A stretch of 31,354 nucleotides of DNA from a virus (taxonomy: Duplodnaviria; Heunggongvirae; Uroviricota; Caudoviricetes). Numbering within the stretch: the stretch's first letter is position 1; the number at the start of each line of letters is the position of its first letter. Shown here piece by piece: positions 1,529 through 9,085 of the stretch. Under the pieces are notes generated by a model. The model saw only the letters and a program-made list of their open reading frames with translations. It was not told where the DNA came from and ran no database searches. A program made the translations under genes and the position numbers. The stretch is taken from the IMG/VR virus record IMGVR_UViG_2531839531_000012. One strand, written 5' to 3'.

Positions 1529-2218
<690 letters not shown>

Positions 2219-2290
2219 TATGGCACCTGTGTTGTTCTGAGGTGAGCATATCACCTCTGTTCAGGTGGCCAAATTCAGTAAACCACTTCA

Positions 2291-3071
2291 ATTTAAACAT
2301 CCTTCCTTGACGTGTGGATAGTTCGTCATAGAGCCATTTAGGAATCGGAACAGTTCTATTCTTCTTACCTTTGGTTTTGGTGAAGGTCAGCTTGTAGGGT
2401 GAGAGTTGAGCGCGTGTAAGCCTCTCGGCTTCTCCCCATCGTGCACCGGTTGCCAAACATACCTTAACAATCATCGTAAGATTTTCTTTGCCATATTGTT
2501 CACAGGCTCGGAACAGCTCCGGGAGCTGAGACAAAGTTAGCCAGGACATTTCTTTCTCAGCTTCTTTGAATACGCGAATCCCGTCCAGTGGATTGGGTAA
2601 ACTCCACTCCCCTAATCGTCGCAGTTCATTGAACACTGCTTCGAGGTATTGCTGCTCGCGATTGACAGTTATAGGTTTGGCGATCCACTTCGCCGGGTCT
2701 TTGTGATAGCCGTTGTCTATTTCGCCACGTAATCGACGGTCACGGTAATGAGCCCAATCTTTAGCGGTAAGACGAGATGCAATAGGGTCGCCCAACCCGT
2801 TACATACGATTTGAAGCTTTGCCAACCGCGACTTACTGGCTACTAACGCCTGACCGTGCAAATTGTGCCAAAGCTGAATAATCTCACTTAAGCGTCGGCG
2901 GTCTTCTTTCTTGCCGAGCCACGGCTTATCTTCACTCTCGCTTTTGGTAAATGCTTCGAATGCCTCGGCCTCACCTTTGGTATTGAATTGACGACGTATA
3001 CGCCGCCCTTCCCGGCCATTTGGATAAAGCTCACATAACCATTTACCATTTTTTTGCTTACTTACTGTCAT
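2291..3071 (-). pseudogene. int: P2/186-type tyrosine integrase, C-terminally truncated by the IS insertion
   Basis: N-terminal 260 aa (MTVSKQKNGKWLCELYPNGREGRRIRRQF...CLATGARWGEAERL...NRTVPIPKWLYDELSTRQGRMFK) has the P2 Int pattern. The segment normally carrying the catalytic H-x-x-R and Tyr is replaced by IS sequence from 2290 leftward. Confidence 0.8.
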
Positions 3072-3094
3072 AGCTACACCGAGGCCAAAAAATA

Positions 3095-3433
3095 TTATTC
3101 ACACAACGCTATAGCTTCACTGAAAATCGGGCCAATATCAGCGCTTTCTAATGAATCGTTAGGGTCTTTTTTAAGAACTTCTTTTAAATCTCGCCCTTCC
3201 ATTTTTCCTGATTTGACGGCGTTTTTAGCCATACCGCTTAGGGGGTATCGTTCATCCGTATCAATGTCATAAACAAAAACGTAGTGACTATTTACACAAG
3301 ATACCTTTGCATGCTCAAAGGTCAGCGGCCATTTATCACCAAAAGATTTAATATCAATCTCTTTGAACTTTTCAGCGGCAAAGGTTGAGGAAGAGAGTGC
3401 AATACAGATTATTCCAAATAAAAACTTTTTCAT
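3095..3433 (-). CDS. Small secreted protein with N-terminal signal peptide (possibly DUF2511/YebY-like); cargo gene between int and repressor
   Basis: 112 aa beginning MKKFLFGIICIALSSSTFAAE (hydrophobic signal peptide); two Cys in the mature part. AT-rich relative to the phage backbone. Confidence 0.6.
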   Translation of the reverse strand: MKKFLFGIICIALSSSTFAAEKFKEIDIKSFGDKWPLTFEHAKVSCVNSHYVFVYDIDTDERYPLSGMAKNAVKSGKMEGRDLKEVLKKDPNDSLESADIGPIFSEAIALCE

Positions 3434-3442
3434 TACTGCTCC

Positions 3443-4306
3443 TTAAACATGCTTTTCCAAGGTAAAGATAACTGCACCTGATGGTGTGATATCAGAGAGA
3501 TTACATTCAAACTCAGCAGACTTATTTGATAGCCTGACCTTTCCACCTGGCATTCTGATTACGTCAAAAATATCGAGCGCACCATCAATGCCAATAAGCC
3601 AACGACCATTTCCTATCTTTGAGTTAGAACAATCAACAAGCCAAGATGCGCCAACTCCATCAATAAAGACCAACTCATCAATGTTTGCAGGAACCATTGA
3701 AAGGTCTGGAGTCCAACGCCCAATATCTTTTAACTCACCAGCTTCAAGACGACATTTTCTTACTGTTAAGGCGTTAAGTGATTCACCCTCTTTGCTGTCT
3801 CGCATTTGGCCTTTTCCTGTAGATAGCCACTCTAACGATACGCCAGTATCGAGTGCGCAGGTCACAACCACATCGCCAGGGAAGAAGTCACGCCTAACCC
3901 AAGTGCTAATAGTACCGGAAGAAATACCTAATAAATCACCAAGCTCTTTTTGCATCGTAAAACCATAAGCATCCAGAATCCTACGCAAAACGGTTTTACC
4001 GCCGTTCGTCATAATCTCGTCATAAAGCTCTTTGCCTTTTAACTTGCAACCGACTCGCCCATGATTTGCATTTGCAAGCTCACCACTTACAAGCCAATTA
4101 ATATCAGCGCCCGTGTCAAGACAACACCTAACTATGATGTTGCCAGGTATTGCATCGCGTTGAACCCAGCCGCTAACGCTATGTTTCGCGATTCCTAGCA
4201 GGTCAGCCAAATCCTTTTGCATCTTGACGCCATAGGCTGACATTAAGCGCTCTAATACGCCATTTGACGCACCTATGCGCCACTGAACATCAAGCTCAGA
4301 ACTCAT
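3443..4306 (-). CDS. CI-like immunity repressor with two tandem 186-CI-type HTH domains and a C-terminal oligomerisation-like domain
   Basis: Two homologous segments (LERLMSAYGVKMQKDLADLLGIAKHSVSGWVQRDAIPG... and LRRILDAYGFTMQKELGDLLGISSGTISTWVRRDFFPG...). Position and orientation are those of the immunity repressor, divergent from the early operon. Confidence 0.7.
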   Translation of the reverse strand: MSSELDVQWRIGASNGVLERLMSAYGVKMQKDLADLLGIAKHSVSGWVQRDAIPGNIIVRCCLDTGADINWLVSGELANANHGRVGCKLKGKELYDEIMTNGGKTVLRRILDAYGFTMQKELGDLLGISSGTISTWVRRDFFPGDVVVTCALDTGVSLEWLSTGKGQMRDSKEGESLNALTVRKCRLEAGELKDIGRWTPDLSMVPANIDELVFIDGVGASWLVDCSNSKIGNGRWLIGIDGALDIFDVIRMPGGKVRLSNKSAEFECNLSDITPSGAVIFTLEKHV

Positions 4307-4335
4307 AAAAACCCCTACAGATAATTTTATGGGTG

Positions 4336-4364
4336 TTTACAGAAAACTTTTTACGATCTATAGT
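4336..4364 (+). promoter_or_regulatory. Putative early rightward promoter (TTTACA-17 bp-TATAGT)
   Basis: -35 TTTACA at 4336-4341 and -10 TATAGT at 4359-4364, 17-bp spacer, about 60 bp upstream of the first early gene. Direct repeats TACAGAtAAtTTT (4316) and TACAGAaAAcTTTT (4338) flank and overlap the -35. Confidence 0.5.
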
Positions 4365-4427
4365 GGCACTTATCGACCAAGATGCACACCACTGCACTAC
4401 ATTTCAAACAACAGGAGATAATGCGAT

Positions 4428-4781
4428 ATGTCAGATGCAAAATCAATCCCGCTGCATGACGCACAAAACTTACAAAATCAAACTGTATTGCTAGACGCTG
4501 GTCAGTTCAATGCGCTTGTAACCATGATGCAGCTATCCATGCAAAACATGATTCGTACAGCGATGTTAGACACCATGTCAGTAAAAGACTTCGCTGCCGC
4601 CCGTGGCGTTAGCGAGCGTCTGGTCTGGCAATGGATTGATGAGGGCGTCCTTCTCAAAGCTCCCACCAAAGATGTTACCAGCAAAGAAAAAGCCGCTAAG
4701 CGTGGCCGCACCCTTATCAACGTCAAAGCATGGCGTGACAAACTGACCCAGCAAGCTATCGATTGCCGTTATATCAACTAA
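4428..4781 (+). CDS. HTH protein, first gene of the early operon; positional analog of Apl/Cox excisionase-regulator
   Basis: 117 aa. AGGAGA RBS 9 nt upstream. HTH-like segment MSVKDFAAARGVSERLVWQWIDEG. Function assigned by synteny only. Confidence 0.5.
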   Translation: MSDAKSIPLHDAQNLQNQTVLLDAGQFNALVTMMQLSMQNMIRTAMLDTMSVKDFAAARGVSERLVWQWIDEGVLLKAPTKDVTSKEKAAKRGRTLINVKAWRDKLTQQAIDCRYIN

Positions 4782-4831
4782 CAGTCATCGCTTAACTGAA
4801 CTTGATTTTGCAAGTTAAAGGGAGTTACAGC

Positions 4832-5341
4832 ATGTTAGATTTTCGTGTTTCGTCACATGCGCACTTTGACGAGGCCTGCAGAAAATTCGCAGCTACTCAT
4901 AACGTGAAAGAACTAGCGAATAAAGCCGGAATCAAGCCGCATACGCTTTACAACAAACTCAACCCAGAACAGCCGCACCAGTTAACGCCGCGTGAAATCT
5001 GGACGCTGACAGACTTGACCGAAGACTCGACCCTCGTCGATGGTTTTCTGGCGCAGATCCATTGTCTGCCATGCGTACCGGTCAACGAACTGGCAAAAGA
5101 GAAACTGCAATCCTACGTCATGCGCGCAATGAGTGAACTTGGCGAACTGGCAAGCGGTGCAGTTTCCGACGACCGCCTCACGCCAGCCAGAAAACAAAAC
5201 ATGATTGCTAGCGTAAATGCGGGGATTCGCATGTTGTCATTATCGGCAATGGCGCTGCATGCGCGTCTGCAAACTAATCCCGCTATGTCGAGCGTGGTCG
5301 ATACCATGAGCGGTATTGGTGCATCCTTCGGGTTGATTTGA
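4832..5341 (+). CDS. cII: CII-like lysogeny-establishment regulator (phage 186 CII type)
   Basis: 169 aa from the internal Met (MLDFRVSSHAHFDEACRKFAATHN...LNPEQPHQLTPREIWTLTDLTEDSTLVDGFLAQIHCLPCVP...). AAAGGGAG RBS. Resembles recalled 186 CII in sequence and length. Confidence 0.7.
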   Translation: MLDFRVSSHAHFDEACRKFAATHNVKELANKAGIKPHTLYNKLNPEQPHQLTPREIWTLTDLTEDSTLVDGFLAQIHCLPCVPVNELAKEKLQSYVMRAMSELGELASGAVSDDRLTPARKQNMIASVNAGIRMLSLSAMALHARLQTNPAMSSVVDTMSGIGASFGLI

Positions 5342-8665: not shown

Positions 8666-8848
8666 ATGGTTGGCGAACATTTCAGCCGAACGCAGCAAAA
8701 GTGGGCTTGTGTGCAATTTATTGCCGAGGTATCTCTGATTGCAAACTGCAAGCCATCAGACTTAAAGCTCGCGCTCACTCTCATTGCAGACCTAGCAAAC
8801 AGCGAAAATAACGAAACCGAAGATGATAATTTTTATAAGGCTGATTAG
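8666..8848 (+). CDS. Small SOS-controlled protein; possible Tum-like antirepressor N-terminal module
   Basis: 60 aa. GGGAGGG RBS 5 nt upstream. 20 bp downstream of the LexA box. Ends at TAG in the same frame as the following DinI-like ORF. Confidence 0.5.
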   Translation: MVGEHFSRTQQKWACVQFIAEVSLIANCKPSDLKLALTLIADLANSENNETEDDNFYKAD

Positions 8849-8851
8849 ATT

Positions 8852-9085
8852 ATGAGAATCAATATCACGTTGGATAAAGAGCAAAAAATTAGTCAGGCAA
8901 CGTTGGATGCACTTGAGGCTGAGCTGTACCGCAATCTTCAACCTATTTACCCAAAGACTGCTATCCGCATTCGTAAGGGCTCAGCTAATGGCGTTGAGTT
9001 AAGCGGTTTGAAACTGGACGAAGATAAAAAACGAGTAATGGAAATCATGCAGCAGGTATGGGAGGACGATAGCTGGCTGCATTAA
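8852..9085 (+). CDS. DinI-family protein
   Basis: 77 aa (MRINITLDKEQKISQATLDALEAELYRNLQ...DEDKKRVMEIMQQVWEDDSWLH), collinear with recalled E. coli DinI (MRIEVT...DALAGEL...EDKQRISEILQETWE...W). Confidence 0.8.
   Translation: MRINITLDKEQKISQATLDALEAELYRNLQPIYPKTAIRIRKGSANGVELSGLKLDEDKKRVMEIMQQVWEDDSWLH

Follow-up and report, generated by a model that had tools for sequence, protein, structure and literature searches.

A CI repressor with two helix-turn-helix domains in a PSP3-like prophage and a possible division of operators between its heads

Why would a phage immunity repressor carry two DNA-binding heads in one chain, and which sites would each of them read? The question is raised by the cI gene of a 31,354-nucleotide stretch of viral DNA, IMG/VR record IMGVR_UViG_2531839531_000012 (the window, meaning this whole stretch). 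The window belongs to the PSP3/186-like (Eganvirus-type) prophages and runs collinear with Salmonella phage PSP3, with ~81-93% of nucleotides identical along most of its length. Its gene order is that of the 186 annotation, with int-cI facing an apl-cII early operon and the early lytic promoter pR directly upstream of cI. A first-pass annotation had described two homologous segments of ~60 residues in tandem in the CI repressor, about half of their positions identical, next to direct repeats 22 bp apart at the putative early promoter, and had suggested that two heads in a single polypeptide could recognize direct rather than inverted repeats. Here, ~125 related loci were compared overall, many of them close kin, so that the counts given below overstate the number of independent observations. 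The results uphold the tandem architecture, and we lean, if only modestly, toward a different use of it, a division of labour in which the N-terminal head (D1) would read immunity-specific operators at pR and the second head (D2) would read conserved distal operators (Table 1).

Architecture of the repressor

The tandem segments described in the annotation are borne out. Residues 17-76 and 106-165 align without gaps, 31 of 60 positions being identical, and the BLOSUM62 score of this D1/D2 self-alignment (183) lies far above that of 500 shuffles (25 +/- 4.5, maximum 48). The Pfam search returned two PF07022 Phage_CI_repr stretches (175.8 bits in total, E = 2e-52) and one PF16452 Phage_CI_C domain (E = 4e-18). 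Both segments are real helix-turn-helix (HTH) domains, and the possibility that only one of them was an HTH did not hold up.

The comparison with the single-domain CI of phage 186 shows which part of the protein is extra. The 186 CI structure 2fjr aligns to residues 105-280 only (phmmer E = 1e-20), and thus D2 plus the C-terminal domain correspond to the whole 186 protein, with D1 as an addition. The C-terminal domain itself has the 186 CI oligomerisation fold, as seen in the Foldseek superposition on 2fkd_A (template modelling [TM] score 0.85, root-mean-square deviation 1.9 A). An AlphaFold2 model built with an alignment of 30 sequences contains three folded modules joined by low-confidence linkers at residues 78-87 and 170-178, with a predicted local distance difference test score of <50 at 78-87. 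The domains are confident and the arrangement of D1 relative to D2 is not defined (predicted TM score 0.44); consequently, the model cannot choose between the explanations weighed below. Since the linkers are of low confidence and flexible in the model, D1 is probably free to bind in either orientation. PDB entry 7JVT, considered as a DNA or Tum complex, was rejected because it is a lambda-186 hybrid repressor.

Candidate sites of the two heads

The direct repeats at pR were found as the annotation had placed them. The two copies of TACAGAWAAYTTT are identical at 11 of 13 positions and lie 22 bp apart from start to start, and the second overlaps the -35 element, since the best sigma-70 match in the region has its -35 at TTTACA. 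The position of this pR-like promoter relative to cI equals that of the annotated 186 pR. An equally good 13-mer repeat (offsets of 10-40) occurred in 16 to 24 of 1,000 dinucleotide shuffles of the intergenic region. No further copies of TACAGAWAAYTTT were found in the window at up to 2 mismatches, so that the D1 motif gives no support to distal sites. The pR of the window contains no convincing palindrome, and no third operator of the 186 kind was found there. Two candidates for such an operator were rejected, TATAGT at 4359 for being the -10 itself and ACTTA-N5-CAAGA at 4368-4382 for not being conserved even in PSP3. A weak inverted repeat, ACCCCTA-N10-TATGGGT, surrounds copy 1 and overlaps the cI Shine-Dalgarno sequence.

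The relatives suggest what these repeats may be. Each type of D1 recognition helix has its own sequence around the pR -35: HANNVSSW is found with TTTTGT-N5-ACAAAA, YANNISSW with two CAAAA-N5-TTTTG palindromes 21 bp apart, AKSNVAGW with TTCATAT-N6-ATATGAA or TGTAT-N6-ATACA, and AKSNVASW with TTTATT-N8-AATAAA. A Gly-to-Ser difference in the helix (AGW versus ASW) is accompanied by different palindrome arms. The helix of the window, AKHSVSGW, is shared by a second group (e.g., L097) whose pR carries AAATTA-N8-TAATTT, and the right arm of this palindrome, in the context TACAGGTAATTT, differs from the window's copy 1 at a single position of 12. The window type lacks the left arm and has the half-site (A/T)TAAYTT twice in the same orientation, at 4321-4327 and 4343-4349. 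On this comparison, the direct repeats look like two copies of the D1 half-site. Among 31 loci that share the D1 sequence, the repeat is kept, and variation is limited to the W and Y positions and to TAYAKA. Other immunity types with the two-HTH architecture have mostly inverted repeats centred on the pR -35; therefore, direct repeats are a trait of this immunity type and not of the tandem architecture, and the earlier suggestion that the architecture enables direct-repeat recognition is not supported.

The conservation of the two heads differs. Two-HTH repressors were aligned as 24 distinct and later as 74 distinct proteins, and in the larger set the mean pairwise identity is 0.89 for D2 and 0.66 for both D1 and the C-terminal domain, falling to 0.57 in the D1 helix. 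Between immunity types A (window and PSP3), B (SW9) and C (Midge), D2 is 95-97% identical and D1 57%. The D2 recognition helix among the aligned two-HTH proteins is either SSGTISTWVRRD or STATISTW.

The likely target of D2 is the palindrome ACTTG-N6-CAAGT, as suggested by repressors that have no D1. In single-HTH CIs with the helix SSGTISTW, this palindrome is present in 23 of 23 IMG/VR loci, 12 of them with perfect arms, and lies in the pR -35/-10 spacer, at -55 relative to the start of cI (example, AACTTGCAAATGCAAGTT). Within 125 bp upstream of cI it occurs in none of 100 double-HTH loci. In the double-HTH loci with an SSGT helix it is found instead at positions equivalent to the 186 distal operators, at the FR position in 84 of 90 loci and at the FL position in 66 of 90, with a background of 3e-4 per position. 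The STAT-helix loci (n = 8) carry ATTCG-N6-CGAAT at both places, 8/8 at FL and 8/8 at FR, and their linker peptide changes to EFENSH, encoded by GAATTCGAAAATTCGCAT.

In the window, the FR-like site has 0 mismatches, where ~0.03 perfect matches are expected by chance, and sits in the gap that follows the apl-like gene (stop at 4781) and precedes cII (start at 4832); its 16-bp core lies inside the pR of a single-HTH phage (L127). The FL-like site is 275 bp from pR and matches the pB site of PSP3 at 15 of 17 positions. PSP3, SW9 and Midge, which represent types A, B and C, have AACTTGCAAATGCAA over the -35 of pB, the promoter of the ogr/B-type late activator; this position is ~13 bp beyond the right end of the window and was read in the related phages only. 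The FL-, FR- and pB-like places correspond to the CI sites FL, FR and pB annotated in 186, whose operator sequences were taken from the U32222 annotation. TTGCAA by itself shows no enrichment in the window (7 copies versus ~7.6 expected); only the longer palindrome and its positions are informative. A further candidate, TTGCAAACTGCAAG inside tumA (8739), was rejected as a chance match that does not fit the 5-N6-5 palindrome. In 186 itself, the FL operator (L024, 727-743) lies in the codons of the linker that follows the HTH domain (FTLSE); thus, 186 and the PSP3 type share a distal operator in linker-coding DNA.

Nucleotide comparisons with PSP3 and SW9 also point to a link between D1 and the pR operators. 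In 50-nucleotide blocks, the window is 86-100% identical to PSP3 in ~4000-4372, which holds the linker codons, the D1 codons and the pR operators, and 50-74% identical in the codons of the C-terminal domain. Against SW9 the order is the opposite: identity is 32-66% in ~4000-4372, rises to 78-90% in the codons of D2 and of the C-terminal domain, and reaches 100% rightward of the pR -10. The cI gene of the window is a mosaic, with a PSP3-like D1/operator block and SW9-like codons for the C-terminal domain. Because the identity to PSP3 and SW9 reverses across this block, D1 and the pR operators behave, as judged from these alignments, as one exchangeable immunity cassette.

In the mechanism that we propose, the repressor would be laid out as the D1 HTH, a flexible linker, the D2 HTH, a second linker and a 186-type oligomerisation domain. 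D1 would bind the pR sites, where half-sites of the form (A/T)TAAYTT, preceded by TAYAGA, stand as direct repeats 22 bp apart, and with the second half-site in the -35/-10 spacer RNA polymerase would be blocked by the bound CI. Two D2 domains, paired symmetrically within a CI dimer, would bind ACTTG-N6-CAAGT at FL, FR and pB, so holding the CI oligomer on FL (in cI) and on FR (in the apl/cII gap) and repressing pB. Since the D1 codons adjoin the pR operators, the two could be exchanged as a cassette, and a swap of this cassette by recombination would create a new immunity while leaving D2, the distal sites and the oligomerisation domain undisturbed.

Alternative explanations

It is important to consider the points that weigh against this division of labour. 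What was observed directly is how the domains are arranged, how conservation is distributed, that cI is mosaic, and where the motifs lie and with which helix types they go; from these observations we infer the assignment of heads to sites, the repression of pR, looping and the oligomeric state. At pR, the direct repeat alone is only modestly significant, as ~2% of the shuffles contain one as good; TACAG is also part of the conserved -35 context of all immunity types; a local duplication could have left copy 1 behind as a remnant without function; and the third pR operator known from 186 was not found. For D2, the covariation of helix and half-site rests on about two clades, that is, on one or two independent events, and CII and the Apl analogue also differ between the SSGT and STAT clades. 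Furthermore, FL lies in coding sequence, the pB site overlaps a -35 hexamer (TTGCAA), and a pE-like promoter may extend over FR, so that the conservation of the palindrome is partly open to other causes. The conservation of D2 itself could reflect the docking of the TumA antirepressor.

The alternative that survives best, which we nonetheless regard as unlikely, treats each operator at pR as composite. One chain would act as a pseudo-dimer, with its D2 on TAYAG (4316, 4338 and 4359) and its D1 on the variable flank, and the repeats would be head-to-tail asymmetric operators every 21-22 bp, like the three operators of 186. The spacings between TACAG, TACAG and TATAG (22 and 21 bp) agree with this arrangement, as does the distance of two turns between the 186 operators, and, like D2, TTTACAG and GATCTAWAGTG are kept in almost every immunity type. 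However, these elements fall on the -35 and -10 hexamers, which accounts for their conservation, and TAYAG does not resemble the D2-type half-site CAAGT, whose palindrome is absent from the 100 pR regions. The repeats of type B are 18 bp apart instead of 21-22, and several types have clean two-fold palindromes at pR that fit two identical heads better.

A reading that we hold to be rather improbable takes copy 2, in the promoter spacer, as the sole operator and regards copy 1 as functionless, either matching by chance or left over from a local duplication of 22 bp. The ATAAYTT core of copy 1 is kept in 31 of 31 sampled type-A loci, and copy 1 stands at the position of the cI-proximal operator of 186, both of which argue against a remnant, whereas the modest significance of the repeat, the variation of the TACAGA part of copy 1 in PSP3 and others, and the lack of a good copy 1 in the closest group with the same D1 helix, which has an inverted partner, argue for it.

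D2 might, alternatively, not bind DNA at all, being conserved as a docking surface for TumA or for structural reasons, with the palindromes bound by another factor or representing promoter elements or relics. A tumA homologue is present at 8666-8848, the Tum protein of 186 binds CI (PMC3121763), and at pB the motif overlaps TTGCAA, which is -35-like. This explanation seems to us quite improbable, as D2 keeps all conserved features of an HTH together with the helix that single-HTH CIs must use at pR, the half-site changes together with the D2 helix, and promoter function does not explain the perfect 18-bp palindrome at FR.

Finally, the model of the first-pass annotation, in which one copy of TACAGAWAAYTTT is bound by D1 and the other by D2 of the same chain, stood in its premises (both HTH domains are real, and the repeats lie two helical turns apart at the 186 operator position in pR, a distance of 22 bp that a flexible linker of ~28 residues could span) and is very improbable in its conclusion, because the recognition helices AKHSVSGWVQRD and SSGTISTWVRRD differ at 7 of 12 positions and are not expected to read near-identical repeats, D2 is invariant across immunity types with wholly different pR repeats, its helix is associated with another motif, ACTTG-N6-CAAGT, and relatives of the same architecture have mostly inverted repeats at pR.

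Relatives, origin and gene context

The proposed division of labour between D1 and D2 can be set beside the switch of phage 186, whose CI is a textbook alternative to the lambda switch. The window CI and 186 CI (PDB 2FJR and 2FKD; a 14-mer wheel, formed by a heptamer of dimers, around which DNA is wrapped and looped) share the Phage_CI_repr and Phage_CI_C families and the C-terminal fold (TM 0.85), and the two phages have cI at the same position, next to int and facing apl-cII, as well as a tum-type antirepressor gene. In size and domain number they differ, with one HTH in ~190 residues in 186 and two in 287 residues here. The stretch from the cI start codon to the pR -10 holds three CI sites in 186 and the repeats in the window; the former are inverted repeats two helical turns apart, whereas the latter are two direct repeats, and several sister immunity types have pR palindromes. 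The distal operators FL and FR have counterparts by sequence in the window (4064-4079 and 4799-4816), and that of pB is found in PSP3, SW9 and Midge, with the motif ATTCAC-N5-GTGAAT in 186 and ACTTG-N6-CAAGT here. The single HTH of 186 CI is described as binding two distinct recognition sequences (Shearwin et al. 2002, as cited in PMC3675496). In the window and its relatives, these two operator classes appear, from their sequences, to be split between two domains.

The CI of PSP3 (NP_958086) is the orthologue of the window CI, with 83.6% identity and an identical D1 recognition helix, and its repeats, TACATATAATTTT and TACAGAAAACTTT, are nearly those of the window. Nothing fundamental separates the two proteins, the C-terminal domain of the window being mosaic relative to PSP3. 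The extra length of PSP3 CI has been described as "a longer C-terminal domain" and not as a second HTH (PMC3448106), and no description of a duplicated HTH in the PSP3-type CI family was found in the literature searched. The two-HTH architecture is already in databases, and the functional reading given here appears to be undescribed. CIs of ~280 residues with the same Pfam families are abundant in Enterobacterales (hundreds of entries, 18 species-level genomes and 347 IMG/VR stretches), and the two-HTH form is common in prophages of Klebsiella, Enterobacter, Salmonella, Escherichia, Pantoea and Pectobacterium. When the library was clustered at 50% identity, the long type formed about ten clusters, and most relatives were proteins of ~190 residues that align to residues 100-285. 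The single-HTH CIs of a Chimaeribacter prophage (L023) and of IMG/VR loci L110-L132 have an HTH 82% identical to D2, with the helix SSGTISTW, and lack D1; they have the same palindrome as the distal sites of the window but inside pR.

Two other systems resemble the window in part. Engineered single-chain 434 repressors have two DNA-binding domains fused head to tail that bind the two halves of one operator. They also have two Cro/CI-type HTHs per chain, whereas the evidence from the window points to separate operator classes at separate loci. The operator repeats of the C repressor of P2 lie at the early promoter with a 22-bp periodicity. P2 belongs to the same wider phage group, and the likeness of the direct repeats at the early promoter is one of layout only, as P2 C is an unrelated small single-domain protein that forms a symmetric dimer without a second HTH. 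P2 C reads direct repeats that are not palindromic (PMC2995052, PMC1904268), has about half the size of CI, and belongs to a family reported as impossible to align with that of CI (PMC3448106). No P2-C-type family was present among the Pfam, PHROG and PDB matches of the window CI, all of which are of the 186 CI type.

The D1 domains all fall into a single clade of a neighbour-joining tree, in which the D2 domains cluster with the HTH domains of single-HTH CIs (82% identity to L113). This topology fits D1 as an extra HTH copy with a single origin in the lineage, followed by fast divergence. In the Klebsiella phage Kp4872-2 (OK490434.1; Elveevirus; L185), the CI of ~296 residues (cI at ~2477-3360) likewise carries a pair of Phage_CI_repr HTH domains, with 62% identity between them. 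Because this pair clusters together, apart from the PSP3-type D1 and D2, it indicates, on sequence grounds, an independent second HTH duplication in Klebsiella Elveevirus phages. Other relatives have 3-7 Phage_CI_repr stretches (P0178, P0190, P0195, P0213, P0249 and P0253), among them P0213, with 7 stretches in 525 residues, and P0253, with 5 in 1,170.

A broader and more tentative proposal, which we consider possible but short of probable, is that immunity in this lineage evolved through a spare head: the duplicated D1 would have taken over pR and been swapped together with its operators as a cassette of ~370 bp, while the ancestral D2 anchored the oligomer at FL, FR and pB. If so, the heteroimmune phages of the group would share D2 sites, and when a heteroimmune relative superinfects, its pB, FL and FR would still be bound by the CI of the resident prophage. 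Activation of late genes would then be partly cross-repressed, an effect that would escape classical immunity tests. In 186, the puzzle is how one HTH reads two operator classes, which PSP3-type CIs appear to split between domains. The D1/D2 split would thus offer an experimental handle on the part of each operator class in repression, looping and late-gene control, and it suggests a simple route to new immunity specificities without rebuilding the rest of the switch.

Table 1. Coordinates of the repressor gene, its domains, the candidate operators and the adjoining early genes in the window
Feature	Position	Strand	Basis or remark
cI immunity repressor gene	3443-4306	-	287 aa, incl. stop; open reading frame list, Pfam, PSP3 CI orthologue
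D1, N-terminal extra HTH, residues 17-76	4079-4258	-	Self-alignment; variable, immunity-specific head
D1 recognition helix AKHSVSGWVQRD, residues 40-51	4154-4189	-	Within D1
D1-D2 linker, residues 77-104	3995-4078	-	Predicted disordered at 78-87; short helix at 92-101
D2, second HTH, residues 105-165	3812-3994	-	Conserved head; counterpart of single HTH in 186 CI
D2 recognition helix SSGTISTWVRRD, residues 129-140	3887-3922	-	Within D2
C-terminal domain, residues 182-287, 186 CI oligomerisation fold	3446-3763	-	PF16452; Foldseek
Exchangeable immunity cassette (linker, D1 codons, pR operators)	~4000-4372	.	Identity in 50-nucleotide blocks
pR-like early lytic promoter, TTTACA (4336-4341), 17 bp, TATAGT (4359-4364)	4336-4364	+	Best sigma-70 match
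Direct repeat copy 1, TACAGATAATTTT	4316-4328	+	Upstream of pR -35; overlaps cI ribosome-binding region
Direct repeat copy 2, TACAGAAAACTTT	4338-4350	+	Overlaps pR -35; half-site in -35/-10 spacer
Candidate D1 half-site in copy 1, ATAATTT	4321-4327	+	Match to palindrome arm of relatives
Candidate D1 half-site in copy 2, AAAACTT	4343-4349	+	In pR -35/-10 spacer
FL-like D2-type operator (candidate), GCTTGCAAATGCAAAT on cI strand	4064-4079	-	In linker codons L77-N81 (ELANAN)
FR-like D2-type operator (candidate), AACTTGATTTTGCAAGTT	4799-4816	.	Perfect 6-N6-6 palindrome
Apl/Cox analogue, first early-operon gene, PSP3 gp30 homologue	4428-4781	+	phrog_3554; weak match to Cox-like phrog_575
cII-like activator gene	4832-5341	+	phrog_101; start set by alignment to PSP3 annotation

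The remaining observations concern the genes around the switch. The Pfam search gave no match for the product of the Apl/Cox analogue gene, whose PSP3 counterpart was called a singleton without detectable domains in an earlier paper. The spacer between pR and this gene (4373-4427) is invariant across immunity types A, B and C and contains TGCAC-N5-TGCAC at 4384-4398, phased at 10 bp, the Pectobacterium relatives having TGCAA-N5-TGCAA there; the Apl analogue might bind there, or CI might do so weakly, over pL. In 186-type phages, induction runs through a LexA-controlled Tum antirepressor and not through self-cleavage. The tum gene of the window is split, as reported for PSP3 and Fels-2, into tumA (8666-8848, 60 aa) and a dinI-like gene (8852-9085), both recognized by sequence similarity to PSP3, and no relative of TumA with a solved structure was found.

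On the other side of cI, the integrase gene (2187-3071, minus strand) is truncated, with a Pfam catalytic domain that covers profile positions 2-75 of 172 only, and an IS3-family element adjoins it (orfA, HTH_Tnp_1, 1919-2218; orfB fragment, 1467-1889); consequently, the prophage is probably unable to excise. Between int and cI lies a DUF2511 gene (3095-3433) whose product has a signal-peptide-like N-terminus; it is kept in PSP3, SW9, SEN1 and Midge and looks like a moron, an accessory prophage gene.

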